Origin: Gammaproteobacteria bacterium
GTDB taxonomy: Bacteria > Pseudomonadota > Gammaproteobacteria > UBA4575
NCBI GenBank assembly: GCA_026706595.1
Contig: JAPOYL010000011.1
Location: 69,686 to 133,685, forward strand
Length of the DNA: 64,000 nucleotides
Direction: 5' to 3'
A model generated the notes under the pieces. The model ran no database searches. It worked only from the letters and a program-made list of their open reading frames with translations, and was not told the DNA's origin. Made by a program: the position numbers and the translations under genes. The number at the start of each line of letters is the position of its first letter. Positions within the stretch are counted from its first letter, which is position 1. Of this stretch, positions 30,715 through 40,663 are shown one piece after another.

Positions 30715-31869
30715 ATGATGAAACTTATGATTAACGCAAGGTACTGGTTCGCCCCGATCCTGATCATCGTCACGATGTTCGGAGTACTGATGGGCGGCAT
30801 GTTCGTATGGGTCGGACTGCTGCTGTTGGGCGTTGGTATCGTGATCGACACAGCCATGAAGTGGCAAAGTTCCGGTGCAGGCTTTGACCGGAGCGGAGAA
30901 ACGATGGGTGTGCCCTGGCTACAGAACAGCGTGATGTACGTCATGTTGGGAGTATTCGTACTCCTGCAACTGGCGCTCGCATGGCGTATCTACCAGTACG
31001 TCAATGGTGTCCCGCTGAGTGCCGGGTTCGACCATGTCATGTTTGGATTCCTGCCTTATATGAATGGAATCTCCGGACTTGACCTGATCGGTGCCACGAT
31101 ATCCTCAGGCATCTTTGCCGGTATTGGTATTATTTATGGACATGAACTGAGCCATACGAAGGGATTTGCCTTTGCCATTTCCCGCTCAATGATGGCGCTG
31201 AGTGGCAAAGCTCACTTCAGCTATGCACATGTCTATAACCACCATCTGGAACTGGCACACGAAGATGATCCTGCTACGTCACCGCGTGGAAGAACCATCT
31301 ACCGACACTATCCATTGGCCGGAATCGGGCAGTCCCGCTTCCTGTACAGAATGGAGAAGCAACGTCTGGAGCGTCTGGGCAAATCCTGGTTCACATGGGA
31401 AAATCGCTGGCTGCGTGGCTATGCCATGAGCCTGCCGACCCTGTTCCTGTTCTGGTTTGCCGGCGGCTGGATTGGTATTGCCTGCCTGTCAGTTGTATGG
31501 CTGATCTCAAACTTTGAGCTCGAAGCCCTCAACTACATGGAGCATTACGGCTTGATTCGTGAGAAGGGACAGCCGATTGACTATCGTCATTCATGGGACA
31601 ACGCAACAGCGTTCACCAGCTGGTTCTTCATCGAGATTGGCCGTCAGGCAGATCACCATGACCGTGGTGAAACCCACTTCTGGGAGCTGGATGACGTAGG
31701 TGCTCCTAACACCGGATGGGGTTACTTCACCTTGTTTGCCATCGCGCTCATACCGCCGCTTTACCACATGTATATGAAGAAGGAACTGGCAAAGTGGGAC
31801 AGAGAGCGTGCCTCAGAGGGCGAGCGTGCGATTGCTGATCGCCTCAACCGTCAGGTTGGTTACGCTTAA
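30715..31869 (+). CDS. AlkB-family integral-membrane non-heme di-iron hydroxylase (alkane 1-monooxygenase-like / fatty acid desaturase superfamily)
   Basis: His boxes in AlkB order: HELSHTK, HVYNHH followed by DPATSPRGRT (AlkB has EHNKGHH...DPATSRMGE), NYMEHYGL, and RQADHH (the first His of box 3 is replaced by Gln). N-terminal TM helices. Strong RBS. Confidence 0.8.
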   Translation: MMKLMINARYWFAPILIIVTMFGVLMGGMFVWVGLLLLGVGIVIDTAMKWQSSGAGFDRSGETMGVPWLQNSVMYVMLGVFVLLQLALAWRIYQYVNGVPLSAGFDHVMFGFLPYMNGISGLDLIGATISSGIFAGIGIIYGHELSHTKGFAFAISRSMMALSGKAHFSYAHVYNHHLELAHEDDPATSPRGRTIYRHYPLAGIGQSRFLYRMEKQRLERLGKSWFTWENRWLRGYAMSLPTLFLFWFAGGWIGIACLSVVWLISNFELEALNYMEHYGLIREKGQPIDYRHSWDNATAFTSWFFIEIGRQADHHDRGETHFWELDDVGAPNTGWGYFTLFAIALIPPLYHMYMKKELAKWDRERASEGERAIADRLNRQVGYA

Positions 31870-32378: not shown

Positions 32379-33059
32379 ATGTTAGGTGATCATTTGGCGG
32401 ACAAAATGAAATTTTATGGGAACCCCTCATGCCTGCGCAGCGCGATGTGCATGTTCACCGCTGCCGAGAAGGGCGTGGACTTAGAGGGCCACTTTGTCGA
32501 TCCCAATGGAACGGGTGCGGCTGACGTTCAGGCGCTTGCGCCGCATGGCTTGTTGCCTGTACTGAAGGACGTCGATTTCGTCGTTTGCGGACAACAAGGC
32601 ATCATGTCCTATCTGGACGACAAGGGCTTTGGTCCATCCCTGATTCCCCGTAATGGCGTCGTGCGTGCAATCCACTACATGTGGAATCAGCTCGCCACCG
32701 ATATTGCACTGGACGCAGTTGCTGGATTGATGTCCGGTACTGGGGATGCTGCAGCCGCATCGGGGTGCTTCGATCTTCTGAATTCGCATCTGGCATCCAA
32801 GAGCAATCCTGCGCTGCGCGGTGATTTCATTTGTGGAGCCTTCAGTCTCGCAGATATCCACTGGGCTGCCCTGGCACAAGGCTGCATGCTTGCCGACAGC
32901 AGCGATGTGGTGGAGTCCAGACCGGCCGTTGCAAAATGGTGGGGCCTGGTCAAGTCGCATCCCAGCACGAGCAAGGAAAACATCCGCGGCTATGATGTGC
33001 TTCCGACCAAGACGGACATCAGCGGCAACAGCCTGCGTGGTGTCACGATTAATGTCTAG
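32379..33059 (+). CDS. glutathione S-transferase-fold protein, paralog 1
   Basis: Thioredoxin-like N-domain (KFYGNPSC...GLLPVLKDVDFVV.GQQGIMSYL) and a helical C-domain (GAFSLADIHW, KWW). RBS GAGG. Confidence 0.7.
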   Translation: MLGDHLADKMKFYGNPSCLRSAMCMFTAAEKGVDLEGHFVDPNGTGAADVQALAPHGLLPVLKDVDFVVCGQQGIMSYLDDKGFGPSLIPRNGVVRAIHYMWNQLATDIALDAVAGLMSGTGDAAAASGCFDLLNSHLASKSNPALRGDFICGAFSLADIHWAALAQGCMLADSSDVVESRPAVAKWWGLVKSHPSTSKENIRGYDVLPTKTDISGNSLRGVTINV

Positions 33060-33354
33060 AAGGGCTGGGCCTCTTACTATTCATTAATCACGGGTTTCCT
33101 TGAAAGCGGACCTGCAGGGCGGCATCGTCCGGTCAGGTCCCGGGGAAACACGAGCAAGTTATTATGGATTGACCTTGGTGGGAATGCCGGGGTTGGTCGT
33201 GAAGCGACGATGCCTTGAGTCCCTTGGCAGAGGGACCCGGGTGGATGGCGCTTCAAGAAAAGAATTTACGGGCCACAGGGTTTTCAGATTACTCTGGGGG
33301 ACTCCGGTTGCATTATAAATACTCGAATTTAATCTGAGTCAGGAGGTGTGACTA

Positions 33355-33561
33355 ATGTATTCATTCAGAGCAATCGTTGTGATGCTGATATTTTCTGCGG
33401 CCGTCTACTACGGCATGGGTATGCTGGGTCTCACTGCAGCCCATTCCGATCCCTTGATGGCGCTTGCCGGAGCAGTGGTCCTGCTGGTGGCTTTGGTCAT
33501 CAACGTATGGATCTATCTCAAGCTCGCTGGCGAGCATCCGTTTAAATGGTTCAAGGAGTAG
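33355..33561 (+). CDS. small two-TM membrane protein (68 aa), unknown function
   Basis: Strong RBS AGGAGGTG 7 nt upstream. Two predicted TM helices. Followed by a strong hairpin. Confidence 0.55.
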   Translation: MYSFRAIVVMLIFSAAVYYGMGMLGLTAAHSDPLMALAGAVVLLVALVINVWIYLKLAGEHPFKWFKE

Positions 33562-33627
33562 AATCCTCCTACTAAAGGAAGCCATTCGTAGCGCGCAAGC
33601 GCGATCCTAATAAAAAGTGTCAGGCAA

Positions 33628-33666
33628 CTGGACCTGGAGCAAACGAATGTTTGCTCCAGGTCCAGC
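33628..33666 (+). terminator. strong stem-loop (17-bp perfect inverted repeat), probable terminator/attenuator
   Basis: CTGGACCTGGAGCAAAC gaatg GTTTGCTCCAGGTCCAG. No canonical U-tract follows. Confidence 0.45.
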
Positions 33667-33739
33667 CAGCCGTTCTGTAAAAAACCGGACAAAAGGGCGC
33701 CTACAGCTCGAGTCTGTCATAGCAGCTACATAACTGACA

Positions 33740-34408
33740 ATGGGACTATTTTCACGCAAAAAGAAACCTGCCGAGAAGGTTCGTCTACTCGGTCATCCTG
33801 GACATGCCGATACCTGCAAGAGCCTGTACCTGGGTGCTGAAAAAGGGGTTCAGCTGGATCCCGAACTCATTGACATCCGAAGCGAACAGTATCCAGATGA
33901 GACACTGCGGTCAGTGTCACCTTTTGGCAAGCTTCCTTGCCTGGTTGAGGGAGAGGTGGTCACCTCCGGTATTGCGGCCGTATTGCCTTACCTGGATGTG
34001 CGTGGCGGCGGGCAACCGCTGACACCCCGCAAGGCACAGCATTTGGGCACCCAGAATTACTGGATCGAGGTGGGTGCACAGCAGGTGCAGCCAAGGATCG
34101 AGGCCCTGGTGGATGGCCAGCCTGCAGAGGAAGCCAAAGATGGATTGCAAAAGATCTTTGATGGCATGGATGCACATCTGCAAGGCAAGGAGTGCATAGT
34201 TGGCGCATTTTCCTTTGCAGATGTCCATTGGGTGGCCTACCTGCACCTGTTGCATGTAGCAGGCCAGAACAGCCTCATCGACGAGCGGCCCAACCTGAAA
34301 GCCTGGTTCGAGCATATGAAGGTCCGCAAAGGCAGTCACGGCATTGCCTATACGGCTATGCCGTCGGCAGCGGACATTCAGCGAGGCGGATTTGCGAACG
34401 CCGCCTGA
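33740..34408 (+). CDS. glutathione S-transferase-fold protein, paralog 2
   Basis: GKLPCLVEGEVV.TSGIAAVLPYL, GAFSFADVHW, KAWFEHM. Same architecture as paralogs 1 and 3. Confidence 0.65.
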   Translation: MGLFSRKKKPAEKVRLLGHPGHADTCKSLYLGAEKGVQLDPELIDIRSEQYPDETLRSVSPFGKLPCLVEGEVVTSGIAAVLPYLDVRGGGQPLTPRKAQHLGTQNYWIEVGAQQVQPRIEALVDGQPAEEAKDGLQKIFDGMDAHLQGKECIVGAFSFADVHWVAYLHLLHVAGQNSLIDERPNLKAWFEHMKVRKGSHGIAYTAMPSAADIQRGGFANAA

Positions 34409-34454
34409 ACGGCAGAGCACGTTGGTCTGACACCCCTTTGGAGCCACAACGAAT

Positions 34455-35237
34455 ATGAGTGATTTGTTTGAGTTCGGCCGTGCAGCGGACCCGACGGCGA
34501 GCAGCCAGTACGGGGCAAGCGGCGATATGAAAAAAACCCAGTACGTGCTGCAGCTGCTGGGATTCCCGGGGGATGCGGGAACGCTGAAATGCTTGGTCAC
34601 GGCGGTGGAAGTGGGCATGGAGACTGATTGCGGGATTCTCGATATCACGGCAGGTGCCCATGAGTCGGGTGACTACCTGCAGGTCTCGCCACTAGGCTTG
34701 GTGCCTGCACTCAAGGAAGCCGATTACATCGTCACCGGAGAGTTGGGTATCATGAGCTATATCGAGGCCCGGGGGCTGGGCAAGCGCCTGCCACCCAAGA
34801 ATGCAGGCCTGCTGGCTGCCCAGAACTACTGGGGCGATCTTGCCTGCAGCGAGGCCAAACCGCATGTGGAGTCGATCGTGCAGCAGCGCATTTACGCACC
34901 GATGCAGGGCAAAGACTCTGATGGTGTGGCGGTGGACCAAGCCCGTTCGGGGCTTTCCGCGGTGCTGGATGCCCTGGACGGACAGCTTGCCGGCAAGGAA
35001 TTCATTATCGGAGACTATTCATTCGCTGATATCCACTGGACAGCTTACGTTCATCTCCTGTATGAGGCGGGAGAAGGGGATTTGGTTGATTCCCGCGCCA
35101 ATATCAAGGCCTGGTTTGACCGTATCCGGACACACAAGAGCTATTGCGGGCAGGACATCGTGGCATATGACCTGCTTCCGAAGCTTGAAGGCATAAAAAA
35201 CAAGCAGTTGCACTCGGTGGAAGTGTCAGACTATTGA
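34455..35237 (+). CDS. glutathione S-transferase-fold protein, paralog 3 (with N-terminal ~25-aa extension)
   Basis: LGLVPALKEADYIV.GELGIMSYI, GDYSFADIHW, KAWFDRI. RBS GGAG. Confidence 0.7.
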   Translation: MSDLFEFGRAADPTASSQYGASGDMKKTQYVLQLLGFPGDAGTLKCLVTAVEVGMETDCGILDITAGAHESGDYLQVSPLGLVPALKEADYIVTGELGIMSYIEARGLGKRLPPKNAGLLAAQNYWGDLACSEAKPHVESIVQQRIYAPMQGKDSDGVAVDQARSGLSAVLDALDGQLAGKEFIIGDYSFADIHWTAYVHLLYEAGEGDLVDSRANIKAWFDRIRTHKSYCGQDIVAYDLLPKLEGIKNKQLHSVEVSDY

Positions 35238-35270: not shown

Positions 35271-35711
35271 ATGTGGGGATCATCTAAAAAACAGGACCGT
35301 CAGATCAAGGGTGTTACCGGTGCCATTACACCTTTTGTCACGGATACGCTGGGCAGGCTGGACCCGGAAGATCTCGAGGAAGCCTCGATCAAGCGCAAGT
35401 ATGCGATTTACTACATCTACGGTGCCGTTTTATACTTGGCCGAGTATGATGACCTGGGCAAGGACGTCAAGGCGGTACTGGTCACCAATATCCTGGGCGA
35501 GCAAATGAGCGTCGATCAGGCGGCGATTGACAAACTGCCGGTGACCGAGGACCATGCAGATGCTGTGAGGGAAACGCAGTTCATGATTGAGGGGGCCAGT
35601 GCACTGCGCAACTGGCTGACCACAGGGGAACGCGAAAAGAACGCCGCGTACCTGAAGGAGTTGCTGGATAACCCGGACTGTATAACCGGGGAGAGTGAAA
35701 CAGAGCACTGA
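35271..35711 (+). CDS. hypothetical acidic soluble protein (146 aa)
   Basis: ORF sits 33 bp after GST paralog 3 and is probably co-transcribed. No motif recognised. Confidence 0.45.
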   Translation: MWGSSKKQDRQIKGVTGAITPFVTDTLGRLDPEDLEEASIKRKYAIYYIYGAVLYLAEYDDLGKDVKAVLVTNILGEQMSVDQAAIDKLPVTEDHADAVRETQFMIEGASALRNWLTTGEREKNAAYLKELLDNPDCITGESETEH

Positions 35712-36605: not shown

Positions 36606-38132
36606 ATGAGAGAAGTTTTTAATCGGTGGTTAGCAATTGCGTTGCTGGCATCGCTGGCCATTTCAGGGACTGCCTATGCAGGCCCGTACGGCTACGATCT
36701 GCACAACGTGCTGGCTCCACGTTCAGCGGGTATGGCGGGTACCAGCATTGCCAAGCCTCTGGATAACGTGTCGGCAATCTTTGGTAACCCTGCCGCATTG
36801 ACGGACTGGACGGGAACGGAGTTCACGTTTGGTGCCACTTACTACAAGCCCGAAGTCAGACTGGATCACTCGGGGGCCTTCAATCTTCCGACCTATGCAG
36901 GTTCGGTACCTGATGCTGTCTTTGGTGAATTTGCGGTACCGGGGCATTCTAAAGAAGGAGGTACTGCCATCGTATGCGGTAACCCAAACGCGTTCTGTAT
37001 TCCCGATGCAGCATTTGACGACGCGGTCAACGGCAACGAGGGCTACATCGTACCGCAGGTGGGTGTGACACAGGATCTGCGGCCGCTCGGCTTGCCCGCT
37101 GTACTGGGCGCGGGACTGACCGCTGTTTCTGGTATCGGTGTGGAGTTTCGTCATGTTGAAGAAACCCTGGGACTGGGCGCGGAGTTCATCGTCCTGGGCG
37201 CGAACTTCTCCCTTGGCTGGGAGCTGAATGAGCGGGTATCTATTGGTGGTGCAGCTACGATAACGTATGCCTACTTGGACCTTGGCTTAGCAGCGACTTC
37301 AGGCGTAACTCATGACACCGGCATGCGTGGAACACTAGGCTTGACTTACGAAGATATCTTGCCAGGTACCCGGTTGGGCGTGTTCTACATGACGGAACTA
37401 CAGCATGTGTTTGACGACATTATTGCCGTACCGCCTGATGATTATGCGCCAGCGCAAGGTGACGCATTCGAAGGATATGGTGACGATGCACCGGTTCGCT
37501 ACGCCTCCATTCCTATTGAGGAGCCGCGTACGATTGGTATCGGCATCTCCAATGAGACCTTCATGGACGGCAACCTGCTGGTTGCAGCCGATGTGATGTG
37601 GAAGAACTGGGAAGAGGCCGACTTCTGGGGCGATGTCTACGAGGACCAGATGGTCTACAGCATCGGTGCCCAGATGAAGATGGGCAACTGGCGTTTCCGT
37701 GCCGGGTATGGCTATGCCGATGATCCGACGGATCGAGATGCACAGGGCGTCAAGGGACTACCCTATGTCTGCTCTTCAGCAACGAGATGTAATGTAATCC
37801 CTGTAGGCAGTGGGAATGACAGCATATTGCATCTTGGGCAATCAGTCCTTGAGTACCTGCAGGCTTCACAGACCGAGGTGATCTATCGCCACCGCGCCAC
37901 GCTAGGTGTGGGGTACATGGGCTTCCTGGCTCCGTTCCTGAACATTGACGGCCATGTAGGCGTGCAGTTCAAGGAGCGCAACCACTACAGTGCGGGTCCT
38001 GTCCAGACAGCAGGCGTTGTTAGTGCTAATGGGGTAGACCTAGGTCCTTTTGATGGATCAGCAACAACCACGGCCGCAGATGTCTGGTCTTGGCATGCAG
38101 GCTTTGCTCTGACCTGGAACTTCCAGTACTGA
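36606..38132 (+). CDS. FadL/TodX-family outer-membrane hydrophobic-compound transporter
   Basis: Signal peptide ending AYA. N-terminal hatch motif IFGNPAAL (the NPA motif of FadL/TodX). Alternating beta-strand pattern. C-terminal aromatic WNFQY. Confidence 0.75.
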   Translation: MREVFNRWLAIALLASLAISGTAYAGPYGYDLHNVLAPRSAGMAGTSIAKPLDNVSAIFGNPAALTDWTGTEFTFGATYYKPEVRLDHSGAFNLPTYAGSVPDAVFGEFAVPGHSKEGGTAIVCGNPNAFCIPDAAFDDAVNGNEGYIVPQVGVTQDLRPLGLPAVLGAGLTAVSGIGVEFRHVEETLGLGAEFIVLGANFSLGWELNERVSIGGAATITYAYLDLGLAATSGVTHDTGMRGTLGLTYEDILPGTRLGVFYMTELQHVFDDIIAVPPDDYAPAQGDAFEGYGDDAPVRYASIPIEEPRTIGIGISNETFMDGNLLVAADVMWKNWEEADFWGDVYEDQMVYSIGAQMKMGNWRFRAGYGYADDPTDRDAQGVKGLPYVCSSATRCNVIPVGSGNDSILHLGQSVLEYLQASQTEVIYRHRATLGVGYMGFLAPFLNIDGHVGVQFKERNHYSAGPVQTAGVVSANGVDLGPFDGSATTTAADVWSWHAGFALTWNFQY

Positions 38133-38152: not shown

Positions 38153-38187
38153 GAAAAAAGGGGTGGCATATGCCACCCCTTTTTTTG
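38153..38187. terminator. rho-independent terminator (bidirectional)
   Basis: AAAAAA, then GGGGTGGCATATGCCACCCC (a perfect 20-nt palindromic hairpin), then TTTTTTTG. Confidence 0.85.
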
Positions 38188-38327
38188 TTTCTGACCATAT
38201 TCCCAAAAGTTCCATTTGAGAATACAGGGACTAGTCCCTATCAGAGCCTTGTACAGTCCAAATTATTGGAATTTCAAATTTGATCATAGACATGTCATAT
38301 CAGCTTTTTCTAACAACACCCGTTTCA

Positions 38328-38374
38328 TTTCTGTATAATTCATCTGGTTGATCAATCGTTTCTGTATACAGAAA
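38328..38374 (+). promoter_or_regulatory. candidate promoter (-10 TATAAT at 38334-39) plus perfect 16-bp palindromic operator TTTCTGTATACAGAAA (38359-38374)
   Basis: Direct repeat TTTCTGTATA at 38328 and 38359. The second copy forms the perfect palindrome, 52 bp upstream of the precursor ATG. Confidence 0.5.
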
Positions 38375-38426
38375 TTGTGCCTTGCTCCGCAGGACACACA
38401 TAACAATTGTTGGAGGTTTTATAACG

Positions 38427-38807
38427 ATGGATAAGAAACGTCGTGATTTTAATAAGCTGATGGTGGCTGCAGCAGCTGGATTGATGGCTGGAAGCCAGAC
38501 GGTTGCCTTGGCGGGTCACCCGGGCCATGAAGGTTGTCCGAAGCATAGCTGTAAAGGCCAGAATGAATGCAAGGGCAAGGGTGGCTGCAAGTCAAGCGAC
38601 AACGGTTGCGCAGGCAAGAACTCATGCAAGGGCAAGGGTGGTTGTGATCCAGCCCACACGTATGAGAAGCATGCCTGTAAGGGCCAGAATGCCTGCAAAT
38701 GCCAGGGTGGCTGCAAGTCAGGTGACAACGGCTGTGCCGGTAAAAATTCATGTAAAGGCAAGGGTGGCTGCCAGCTTCCAGTTGACCCCAGCCACATGGA
38801 AGGATAA
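38427..38807 (+). CDS. Cys-rich exported precursor-like protein (bufferin/HvfA-like, DUF2282-type), 126 aa, 13 Cys
   Basis: GGAGG RBS. Twin-arginine signal KRRDFNKLMVAAAAGLMAGSQTVALA. Two 34-aa repeats, each with 6 Cys in a CKGQNxCKGKGGCKSxDNGCAGKNSCKGKGGC pattern. Immediately upstream of a DUF692/DUF2063 pair. Confidence 0.75.
   Translation: MDKKRRDFNKLMVAAAAGLMAGSQTVALAGHPGHEGCPKHSCKGQNECKGKGGCKSSDNGCAGKNSCKGKGGCDPAHTYEKHACKGQNACKCQGGCKSGDNGCAGKNSCKGKGGCQLPVDPSHMEG
38544..38771 (+). repeat. tandem intragenic repeat (2 units of ~102 nt, period ~126 nt) encoding the 6-Cys modules
   Basis: Near-identical nucleotide blocks (tgcaagggcaagggtggctgcaagtca...). They explain the overlapping repetitive ORF-track translations at 38503-38835 on both strands. 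Confidence 0.8.
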
Positions 38808-38967
38808 GCAGTACCTAGCAACTCACTTGTTGTAAAGTTCTGACATTTCCAAAAACGGTTTGAGCATCAACAGGGCTACCGAGTACGGTATGCCCTGTTG
38901 ATTGCTTGAATCCTTTCTCTACTGGTAACATGCTTACCAGGCAAATCTGATTCACAAGGTGGTTTCT

Positions 38968-39819
38968 GTGTCTGTAAAAAACCGCTGGAACTTCCCTGAC
39001 CTTGGACTTGGAATCGGGCTTCGCACAGTCCATTTCAATCACGTTCTTGAACACTGGCCCAAGGTGGACTGGTTCGAGATCCTGTCCGAGAATTTCATGA
39101 ACACGGAAGGAAATCCCGTACGTGTGCTGGACCAGATTGCAGAACGCTACCCGATTGTCATGCACGGGGTTTCCATGTCGATCGGCAGCACGGACCCCAT
39201 CGATTTTGACTACTTCACAAGGCTGAAGGCCCTGGCCGAACGGGTGAACGCCCACTGGCTTGGAGACCATGTCTGCTGGACCGGGGTGCATGGGAAAAAC
39301 GGCCACGACCTCTATCCGCTGCCCTACAATGAGGAATCCTTGGCCTTTCTAGTGGACAGGATACGCACCGTCCAGGATTTCCTGGAGCGTCCCCTGATCC
39401 TGGAGAACCCCTCGACCTACCTGGCCTTTGCAAATTCCACCATGCCCGAAGAGGAATTCCTGGCCCGCATGGCCGAGGAGTCGGACTGCGGACTGCTGCT
39501 GGACGTCAACAACGTCTATGTCACCTGCCGCAACCACGGACTGGATTCCATGGCTTATCTGGATGCGCTCCCCTATGACCGGGTGGTGCAGATTCATCTG
39601 GCCGGGCATACCGACAAGGGTACGCACTGCATCGACACGCACAACGGCCGGGTCATTGACCCGGTGTGGGACCTGTATGCCGAGGTTCAGCGCCGCGCCG
39701 GAAACCGTGCCACGTTGATTGAGTGGGATGCCGACATTCCTTCGTTTGAAGAGGTCCATGCCGAGGTTCTGAAGGCGGCGCAATTCCGCCAGATGACCGA
39801 ACTGCGCCATGCCTCGTGA
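38968..39819 (+). CDS. DUF692 family protein (MbnB/BufB/HvfB-like multinuclear-iron TIM-barrel enzyme)
   Basis: Xylose-isomerase-like TIM barrel with conserved His/Asp/Glu ligand pattern (HGVSMSIGS..., HVCWTG, ENPSTY, QIHLAGH, LIEWD). GTG start with AAGGTGG RBS. The track ORF starts 9 nt upstream. Confidence 0.8.
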
Positions 39820-40663
39820 CGACTCGCGGCTGGAAAGCCTCGAGCAATGGATGTATTTGGTCGTAAGCCACCCTGAGGGTGCCAAGGCCGGAGTCGAAGC
39901 AAGTTCCAAGCTGGATAGTGACGCGGCACACGACCTTGAACAAACCGTCCTGCCTTCCGATAAACTGACTCCGCTGGAGTGCGTCTCGGTCTATGCCGAC
40001 ATGTACTTCTGGCGATTTATCGAGATTATGGCCGGGGAATACCCGACCGTGCAGCACATCCTTGGAGAGGAGTTGTTCAACCAAGTAGTCAGGGATTACA
40101 TTGCACATCATCCCTCGACGCACTACAACCTGAATCGCCTGAGCATCAAGTTCCCGCATTACCTGGAAAAGGAGGTCACGGATCTTCCGCACCAGCCTTT
40201 TGTGGTTGCAATCGCCACGGTTGAACGTGTCATGGAGGATGCCTTCGATGACCCGCATCGGGAGAAGATCTCCCCGGAGGCTATCCAGAGCATCCCGGGG
40301 GAGCAATGGGGCGACATCCGGCTGCAGTTCAACCCGGCCCTGTATCTACTGGAACTGGATTATCCGGTCAATGACTATATGACGGCGGTGAATGAAAACC
40401 GCCATATGGACATCCCGCAGGCCGATAAGACATTTGTCGTGGTGTATCGTTGCGATTACACGGTCTGGCGTGAAGACCTGGACTATGAAAGCTACCTGCT
40501 GTTATCGCGGCTTAAGGACGGGGAGTCCTTGGGTGAAGCCCTAGAGAGTTGCACCCTGCAAGAAGGTGTTGACGCCGACAAGATTACGGCCAGCTTGGGT
40601 GAGTGGTTTCAGCGATGGACTGCCCAGGAATTCTTCTGCGGTCTTGAAATCGATTCTGATTGA
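39809..40663 (+). CDS. DUF2063 family protein (MbnC/BufC/HvfC-like partner)
   Basis: Overlaps the DUF692 stop by 11 nt, suggesting translational coupling. About 280 aa, consistent with the obligate DUF692-DUF2063 pairing. Confidence 0.7.

Follow-up and report, generated by a model that had tools for sequence, protein, structure and literature searches.

Bufferins are members of the "Cys-Lys" group, which lies within the captophorin class of RiPPs (peptides that ribosomes synthesise and that are modified after translation). Leprevost et al. divided the bufferins into two families: Buf1, with the DUF2282 signature and 4 Cys, and Buf2 (BUF_6/12Cys), without the DUF2282 signature (PMC11626156, PMC12452194). 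Six Cys are conserved in 90% of the Buf2 members and twelve in the rest, and the model of one twelve-Cys member consists of duplicated 6-Cys domains (PMC12452194). Sigma/anti-sigma genes are found with Buf1 clusters and not with Buf2 clusters, and the founding buf2 cluster of Caulobacter vibrioides (BufA2B2C2, CCNA_02999-03001) is made up of ABC only, without DoxX (PMC11626156, PMC12452194). In C. vibrioides Buf2 the four central Cys lose 4.03 Da each while the first and the last Cys are unmodified, and the product, which absorbs near 305 nm, is copper-induced and copper-protective (PMC11626156). BufA2 is of the Cys-Lys type, and all characterised MNIO-PME1 clusters install 5-thiooxazoles (PMC13097082). 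Here we describe a cluster of three genes, bufA, bufB and bufC, in a stretch of 64,000 nucleotides (the window) from a gammaproteobacterial contig (JAPOYL010000011.1, positions 69,686 to 133,685 of the forward strand). Very probably it is a bufferin-type MNIO RiPP cluster. As one further bufferin cluster, from an uncultured gammaproteobacterium with a small genome, it is a routine addition; the remaining point of interest is the twin-arginine signal of its precursor, which is unremarked in the literature searched.

Among the described systems, Buf2 is the one that the locus resembles most in gene content and precursor. Like the C. vibrioides cluster, it has a precursor gene, an MNIO gene and a DUF2063 gene without DoxX, and like the Buf2 family it has a signal-bearing Cys-rich precursor with CKGxNxCKG and Cys-Lys motifs; the Buf2 signal is reported as a Sec type, whereas that of the window is a twin-arginine signal. 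Buf1 (BufA1B1C1D1) has the same enzyme pair and would share with the window the 5-thiooxazole chemistry and a small, periplasmic copper-binding protein, but it is set apart by DUF2282, by its 4 Cys, by the sigma/anti-sigma genes and usually by a DoxX gene. The oxazolin, fontiphorin and gonophorin systems (HvfABC, FonABC; the "Lys-Cys" group) likewise pair an MNIO with a DUF2063 partner and a repeated Cys motif, and their product is a copper-binding thiooxazole (structure revised in PMC13097082). Their motif, however, is the EGKCG of the third family, the oxazolins (PMC11626156, PMC12452194), with Lys before Cys, whereas the window precursor has no EGKCG and has Lys after Cys. The window enzymes also fall short of the oxazolin-type cutoffs in NCBIfam (HvfB, 248.6 versus 360 bits; HvfC equivalog, 59.1 versus 142 bits), and by this score BufC is not an HvfC orthologue. 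Methanobactin clusters (MbnABC) have the MNIO fold in common with the window and would share oxidative Cys chemistry with it, but the MbnB model, with a cutoff of 325 bits, gives 47 bits; moreover, their precursor is short and of the leader type, and their product is an oxazolone-thioamide that is secreted as a chalkophore through dedicated transporters.

The bufA precursor and its cysteine modules

The original prediction, made from the DNA sequence alone, had a Cys-rich precursor of 126 aa followed by a DUF692 gene and an overlapping DUF2063 gene. This order is confirmed, with an overlap of 11 nt (Table 1), while the start given for the feature, position 38328, falls in the promoter region and not in coding sequence. 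A GGAGG is found 5' of the bufA ATG, and the gene call on a near-identical contig in the European Nucleotide Archive (ENA) gives the identical 126-aa product. Its sequence is MDKKRRDFNKLMVAAAAGLMAGSQTVALA up to the predicted cleavage and GHPGHEGCPKHSCKGQNECKGKGGCKSSDNGCAGKNSCKGKGGCDPAHTYEKHACKGQNACKCQGGCKSGDNGCAGKNSCKGKGGCQLPVDPSHMEG after it; the mature part begins GH and comprises 97 aa, and its reduced form before modification has an average mass of 9694.8 Da and a monoisotopic mass of 9688.14 Da. The composition is metallothionein-like, with 24 Gly, 18 Lys and 14 Cys. Twelve Cys had been predicted, and twelve are indeed invariant across 40 aligned relatives; the other two, C37 and C92, are lineage-specific and not conserved.

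The invariant Cys lie in two compact modules of 35 aa each that agree in 30 of 35 residues. Because 12 of the 34 codons of the module core differ synonymously (80% DNA identity) and because the residues that tell the modules apart at positions 41 and 45 recur across taxa, the duplication is old, not recent. The number of modules can be compared between close relatives. One relative (L084, 5611-5853) has a single compact 6-Cys module in an 80-aa Tat-type precursor and an adjoining BufB 82% identical to that of the window, and another (L002, 6001-6399) has a double module in a product of 132 aa and a BufB about 80% identical to that of the window; the Tat-type signal peptides of these two are nearly identical. 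Module number therefore shifts on short evolutionary timescales.

Searched against NCBIfam, the bufA product has a sole match, in two stretches, to NF050166 (Cu_RiPP_BufA2; E 1.6e-13), a model that each of the 40 aligned relatives matches as well. DUF2282, which the original prediction named for the closest described class, was not found in the precursor by a Pfam search at E up to 1. For comparison we used three canonical BufA2 proteins from plasmids of Legionella, Thiothrix and Asticcacaulis, each encoded beside an MNIO gene, as stand-ins for the C. vibrioides founder. Their genes were reached through BufB searches of plasmids; tblastn of the bufA precursor against plasmids gave no match, probably owing to low-complexity masking. 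On the BufA2 model these proteins reach 80-100 bits. The window modules have the first five Cys spacings (6, 6, 7, 6) in common with all three, and the CKGxNxCKG pattern is found on both sides. A separate observation concerns DUF7640 (PF24646, function not known), the sole Pfam match of the bufA product at 22.3 bits versus a cutoff of 28.1. Several relatives also give weak or precomputed matches to it, and the family may partly coincide with the compact Cys-rich type.

One homologue places the locus among published sequences. GenBank MCI0516215.1, from a Woeseiaceae metagenome-assembled genome (MAG), is 64% identical to the bufA product over 98% of the query, with 12 Cys and an RRSFNK signal, and Table S1 of PMC12452194 (sheet Fig1C) enters it under "Buf2 (yellow)". 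The architecture of the window, which had been thought uncharacterised, therefore already lies inside the published Buf2 family. Judged by this homology, the bufA locus belongs to that family as a compact 12-Cys subtype, and its architecture is not new.

Four differences from the described class had been claimed, and three of them are ordinary Buf2 traits, because the published Buf2 family already shows them in its motif, its duplication and its gene content. The class itself had been given as "6/12-Cys DUF2282", a name that merges Buf1 with Buf2. The contrast with EGKCG used the wrong comparator, since that is the oxazolin motif and canonical BufA2 proteins have CKGxNxCKG. The tandem duplication is real but not distinctive, as 10% of the published Buf2 members have duplicated 12-Cys forms. 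Neither DoxX nor sigma/anti-sigma genes occur between about 30.7 and 45.4 kb of the window, but a lack of sigma/anti-sigma genes is the normal Buf2 pattern, and the founding C. vibrioides cluster has no DoxX either. No SigF/NrsF regulator is apparent at the locus. Only the Tat point remains as a difference from described Buf2.

Maturation enzymes

BufB matches Pfam PF05114 (MbnB_TglH_ChrH) at E 8e-106 with 353.5 bits and passes the NCBIfam equivalog MNIO_BufB ("bufferin maturase"), which has its cutoff at 310 bits, by scoring 356.8 bits; it stays under the cutoffs of ApyH and ChrH, as it does under those of HvfB and MbnB. Its closest solved relatives are PDB 3BWW and TglH. Residues H69, H104, E149, D182, N185, H213, D226, H228 and E255 are invariant across the enzymes associated with Buf1 and Buf2, in motifs conserved with 3BWW, and by analogy these His, Asp, Glu and Asn residues would act as iron ligands. 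Of the two GTG starts in Table 1, the one at 38968 is the more likely, because 283 aa fits most homologues and the gene call on the 98%-identical ENA contig. We also observed that an otherwise conserved MNIO motif, E-R-D, is E-W-D in the clade of the window.

BufC matches DUF2063 (PF09836) at E 8e-17 with 61.8 bits (cutoff 27.2), so that both families predicted for the enzymes are recovered with significant scores. Its C-terminal domain stays below threshold by sequence (NGO1945_C, 20.2 versus 27 bits), and phmmer of BufC against the PDB gave no match. The AlphaFold model, built from 44 sequences, has a predicted local distance difference test (pLDDT) score of 89.1 and a predicted template modelling score (pTM) of 0.85. 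It matches TglI (8HI7) and NGO1945 (3DEE, target TM 0.71); for the C-terminal domain the matches are to the RiPP recognition element (RRE) domains of lasso-peptide B1 proteins (TbiB1 RRE). These matches make BufC a DUF2063 plus RRE partner protein of "PME type 1". The 11-nt overlap of bufB and bufC suggests translational coupling. Taken with the BufA2 match of the precursor, the BufB equivalog and the DUF2063 match bear out the bufferin-type RiPP operon that had been proposed.

Distribution and synteny

Relatives of the precursor are numerous. Of 8,000 candidates scored, more than 6,700 proteins match it with E values no higher than 1e-3. The mature region, as the query of an exhaustive search, brought up 1,002 representatives of clusters formed at 50% identity, and 578 relatives were confirmed in a scan that took one genome per species. 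The counts of genome loci given below refer to the best 80 of these 578. All of these loci are in MAGs, from Steroidobacteraceae, Woeseiaceae, other Gammaproteobacteria, Vicinamibacteria, other Acidobacteriota and Planctomycetota, and the best genome match (93% identity) is in a gammaproteobacterial MAG chromosome of 1.87 Mb, OZ243969.1. The genomes of the relatives of the window are small (1.7-1.9 Mb). A contig of ENA assembly ERZ23491722 (SAMN12347673) encodes BufA and BufC proteins 98% identical to those of the window.

At about 70 of these 80 loci the precursor gene has the MNIO gene and then the DUF2063 gene directly 3' of it. Precursor genes that stand alone without an MNIO gene (L023, L036, L064, L072, L074 and L078) have their counterpart in the literature (PMC12452194). 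No conserved fourth gene (DoxX, transporter or regulator) was found beside the cluster in 65 loci, and because no cluster of neighbours there exceeds 5 members, the conserved core is A-B-C only. By tblastn, a second precursor-like open reading frame (ORF) lies near the main one in L013, L021, L027, L062, L067 and L077; tandem precursor genes are noted in PMC12452194.

The twin-arginine signal

A Tat (twin-arginine translocation) signal had been proposed for the precursor, and much of the sequence evidence agrees. The N-terminus has an RRxFxK motif, an Ala/Gly-rich hydrophobic stretch (LMVAAAAGLMAG, mean Kyte-Doolittle value 1.98) and an A-L-A cleavage site, and R5, R6 and F8 are invariant in the 40 aligned relatives while the neighbouring positions vary. 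R-R-x-F is carried by 107 of the 120 closest database proteins, by 40 of the 79 classified genome loci and by about 28% (42/150) of a set of diverse representatives, which were found with the mature region alone as the query, so that the sample is not biased by the signal. Some relatives combine the RR motif with a lipobox, and in Sec-type relatives KK replaces RR, as in MKKGDL. These patterns speak for selection on the motif. No tat genes and no other Tat substrates were found in the 64-kb window.

This distribution suggests that the twin-arginine signal is a family-wide trait and not peculiar to the locus, as had been supposed; what stands of the supposed difference is that the literature searched does not remark on it. 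There, bufferin-type signals are called Sec-dependent, and Sec dependence is treated as a hallmark (PMC11626156, PMC12452194). The terms "Tat" and "twin-arginine" were not found in the bufferin, MNIO or captophorin literature searched, supplements included. SignalP 6, with which PMC12452194 worked, is able to call Tat/SPI and Tat/SPII signals, yet that paper gives no such call. Where Tat occurs alongside RiPPs in that literature, it is just in unrelated lanthipeptide/bacteriocin papers, one of them on engineered phage display.

From the signal sequences, the balance tips slightly towards a wide and large Buf2 subclade, including the member in the window, that is exported by Tat and not by Sec. 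If so, its members would be the first natural RiPP precursors sent through Tat. The order of maturation would change, with modification and folding preceding the crossing of the membrane: a thiooxazole-bearing protein would be completed and folded before export, and possibly proof-read or even loaded with metal in the cytoplasm. Tat would then provide a natural proof-reading step for modified RiPPs, and heterologous production hosts and constructs would need Tat.

Proposed pathway and alternatives

By homology with the characterised systems and by synteny, we consider it likely that the locus is a three-gene Buf2-type bufferin cluster with a modified, exported and copper-binding product. The bufA gene would yield a 126-aa precursor in which two compact 6-Cys modules follow an N-terminal export signal. 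BufB, an iron-dependent oxidase, and the substrate-binding BufC would turn a subset of the Cys into 5-thiooxazoles while the precursor is in the cytoplasm, with a loss of about 4 Da each, and the best guess for the modified residues is the eight Cys-Lys sites (C42, C48, C54 and C67 in module 1; C84, C90, C96 and C109 in module 2). Once modified, the precursor would be exported, most probably via Tat, and cleaved after Ala29, leaving the 97-aa mature protein in the periplasm, where it would bind excess copper. A hairpin 3' of bufA probably holds the level of precursor mRNA above that of the enzyme mRNA.

Several observations weigh against this reading or against parts of it. The bufA product scores 50.7 bits, under the 60-bit BufA2 cutoff, and covers profile positions 3-62 of 79. 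The low score arises because the compact modules leave positions 63-79 unmatched: the sixth Cys of the window modules stands 6 residues past the fifth (module end KGKGGC), whereas in the three canonical proteins it stands 13 residues past it, in a C-terminal segment that both window modules lack. With a precursor below the cutoff and modules without this segment, the modification pattern of C. vibrioides Buf2 cannot simply be copied onto the compact modules. Lys follows the four central Cys in the Legionella BufA2 that we examined, whereas in the window it follows the first, second, third and fifth Cys of each module. The first thus precedes Lys and the fourth precedes Ala, the reverse of Legionella, and since the Cys-Lys positions are not the four central ones, the set of modified Cys may differ from that of C. 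vibrioides Buf2. In BufB, the residue equivalent to FonB-F250 and BufB2-D251, which is reported to determine specificity as Phe in Lys-Cys enzymes and as Asp in Cys-Lys enzymes, is Ala. Residues 255-259 (window 39721-39735) are E-W-D-A-D, with an Asp two residues past Ala; the FonB-F250 position is Asp in the relative L002 and in two canonical Buf2 enzymes, and Gly in others. The AlphaFold model of the precursor, from a 40-sequence alignment, is unusable (pLDDT 50.6). There is no copper-related gene in the 64-kb window, and the neighbours of the bufferin genes are housekeeping genes. The Tat hidden Markov models (HMMs) TIGR01409 and PF10518, which are short and insensitive, give no match on the isolated signal peptide of the window; one relative comes below threshold, at 14.0 versus 16.7 and 15.7 versus 22.7 bits. 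Finally, many relatives carry the same core behind Sec or lipoprotein signals, and for this reason Tat is not required across the family.

The last two points bear most directly on the export route, and the alternative that survives best is a bufferin cluster whose product leaves by Sec. In that case RRxF would serve recognition by the RRE of BufC, or slow down membrane targeting until modification ends. Sec export of Buf1 has been shown by experiment (PMC11626156), in about half of the genome-encoded relatives the same core stands behind a plain Sec signal or a lipoprotein signal, and the window signal, which the Tat HMMs leave unscored, is short for Tat (29 aa) and has a c-region without a basic residue. 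Such a role of RRxF in modification sits poorly with the report that the Buf1 signal peptide is dispensable for modification (PMC11626156). R-R-x-F-x-K is, moreover, the canonical Tat consensus, and it stays invariant amid varying flanks; the Sec-type relatives show KK in place of RR; and the only weak HMM matches of the relatives' signals are to Tat-related families. Weighing these signals, we regard Tat export of the bufA product as rather probable and export by Sec as possible but doubtful.

The metal and the role leave room for a second alternative, a thiooxazole metallophore whose task is not copper detoxification: it could bind Hg, Ag, Au or Zn, acquire or store copper, or protect against redox or oxidative stress. 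MerC-Buf2 fusions occur in mercury clusters (PMC12452194), gig operons are gold-responsive, and the locus itself has neither copper genes nor a copper-responsive regulator nearby and a compact module unlike the one tested experimentally. Yet all characterised MNIO-PME1 products bind copper (PMC13097082), and Buf1 and Buf2 are induced by Cu and not by Fe, Zn or Mn (PMC11626156). We think another role of this kind unlikely; by analogy, copper buffering by the bufA product is favoured, if less firmly than the assignment to a bufferin cluster. That the product is an unmodified, metallothionein-like secreted protein, with the MNIO and DUF2063 proteins acting on another substrate, is highly improbable, even though its composition is of that kind and some precursor genes lack an MNIO gene (see above; PMC12452194): the two enzyme genes directly follow the precursor gene in about 70 of 80 loci across several phyla, BufC has an RRE-like peptide-binding domain in its model, and the oxidase is a BufB equivalog.

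Candidate regulatory elements

The features of the Buf2-type cluster are listed in Table 1, together with their conservation in L001, the locus of a near relative.

Table 1. Genes, protein segments and candidate regulatory elements of the bufferin locus; positions are those of the window.
Feature	Position	Strand	Description
Terminator-like hairpin	38154..38185	.	perfect 16+16 nt palindrome (AAAAAAGGGGTGGCAT/ATGCCACCCCTTTTTT); largely kept in L001
Sigma-70-like promoter candidate	38310..38339	+	CTAACA-18 nt-TATAAT; 10/12 consensus matches; -10 kept in L001
Candidate operator	38328..38374	.	three exact TTTCTGTATA copies in 47 bp; one overlaps the -10; partly kept in L001
bufA, putative precursor to be modified	38427..38807	+	126 aa; ATG 38427, stop 38805-38807
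Signal peptide, residues 1-29	38427..38513	+	KRRDFNK, hydrophobic LMVAAAAGLMAG, predicted cut after A-L-A
Compact 6-Cys module 1, residues 40-73	38544..38645	+	C42, C48, C54, C61, C67, C73
Compact 6-Cys module 2, residues 82-115	38670..38771	+	C84, C90, C96, C103, C109, C115; plus non-conserved C92
Long RNA hairpin in the bufA-bufB spacer	38857..38912	+	11-nt perfect inverted repeat
bufB, MNIO (DUF692) maturase	38959..39819	+	286 aa from GTG 38959; 283 aa from GTG 38968
bufC, DUF2063 + RRE-like partner protein	39809..40663	+	284 aa; start overlaps bufB end by 11 nt

The spacer between bufA and bufB is 151 nt long (to GTG 38959). Folded as 156 nt, it reaches -53.9 kcal/mol (z -5.5), and none of 200 shuffles is as stable; its hairpin is kept in L001 and L002 with paired substitutions. 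The element is probably a partial terminator or attenuator, or a stabiliser of the mRNA, that would raise the ratio of precursor to enzyme transcript.

Upstream of bufA, the 32-nt palindrome would end the FadL-like gene and set the 5' boundary of the bufferin unit. The promoter candidate is a consensus match only, and the count of such sites is no higher than in shuffles. Matches to TTTCTGTATA with at most one mismatch number 6 in the window, where 0.92 are expected, and all 3 exact copies are at the bufA promoter; two of them make the palindrome TTTCTGTATACAGAAA (38359-38374). These repeats are probably an operator bound by a regulator. We know of no LexA, CopY, CsoR, CueR or Fur box that the palindrome fits. 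The sole Rfam match at gathering score in the whole window is a eukaryotic MAT2A 3' untranslated region stem-loop D (2290-2330, 35.1 versus 32 bits), which lies inside murD and is put down to chance.

Genomic setting

The window is core chromosome, the dcw cluster included, with murD, ftsW, murC, ddl, ftsA, ftsZ, lpxC, secA and argJ, and further with sucC, nadE, bamD, clpB, proS, dxs, radA and ffh. Directly upstream of the bufferin unit is the gene of a FadL/TodX-like outer-membrane protein (508 aa, 36606-38132). Synteny of this gene and of a DUF4156 lipoprotein gene downstream is confined to near relatives (L001, L085), and a functional link between the FadL-like gene and the bufferin operon is unlikely. 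Farther upstream, a 146-aa ORF (35271-35711) with no Pfam match follows three consecutive genes for proteins like glutathione S-transferases (226, 222 and 260 aa; 32379-35237), and these in turn follow a fatty-acid desaturase gene at 30715-31869.

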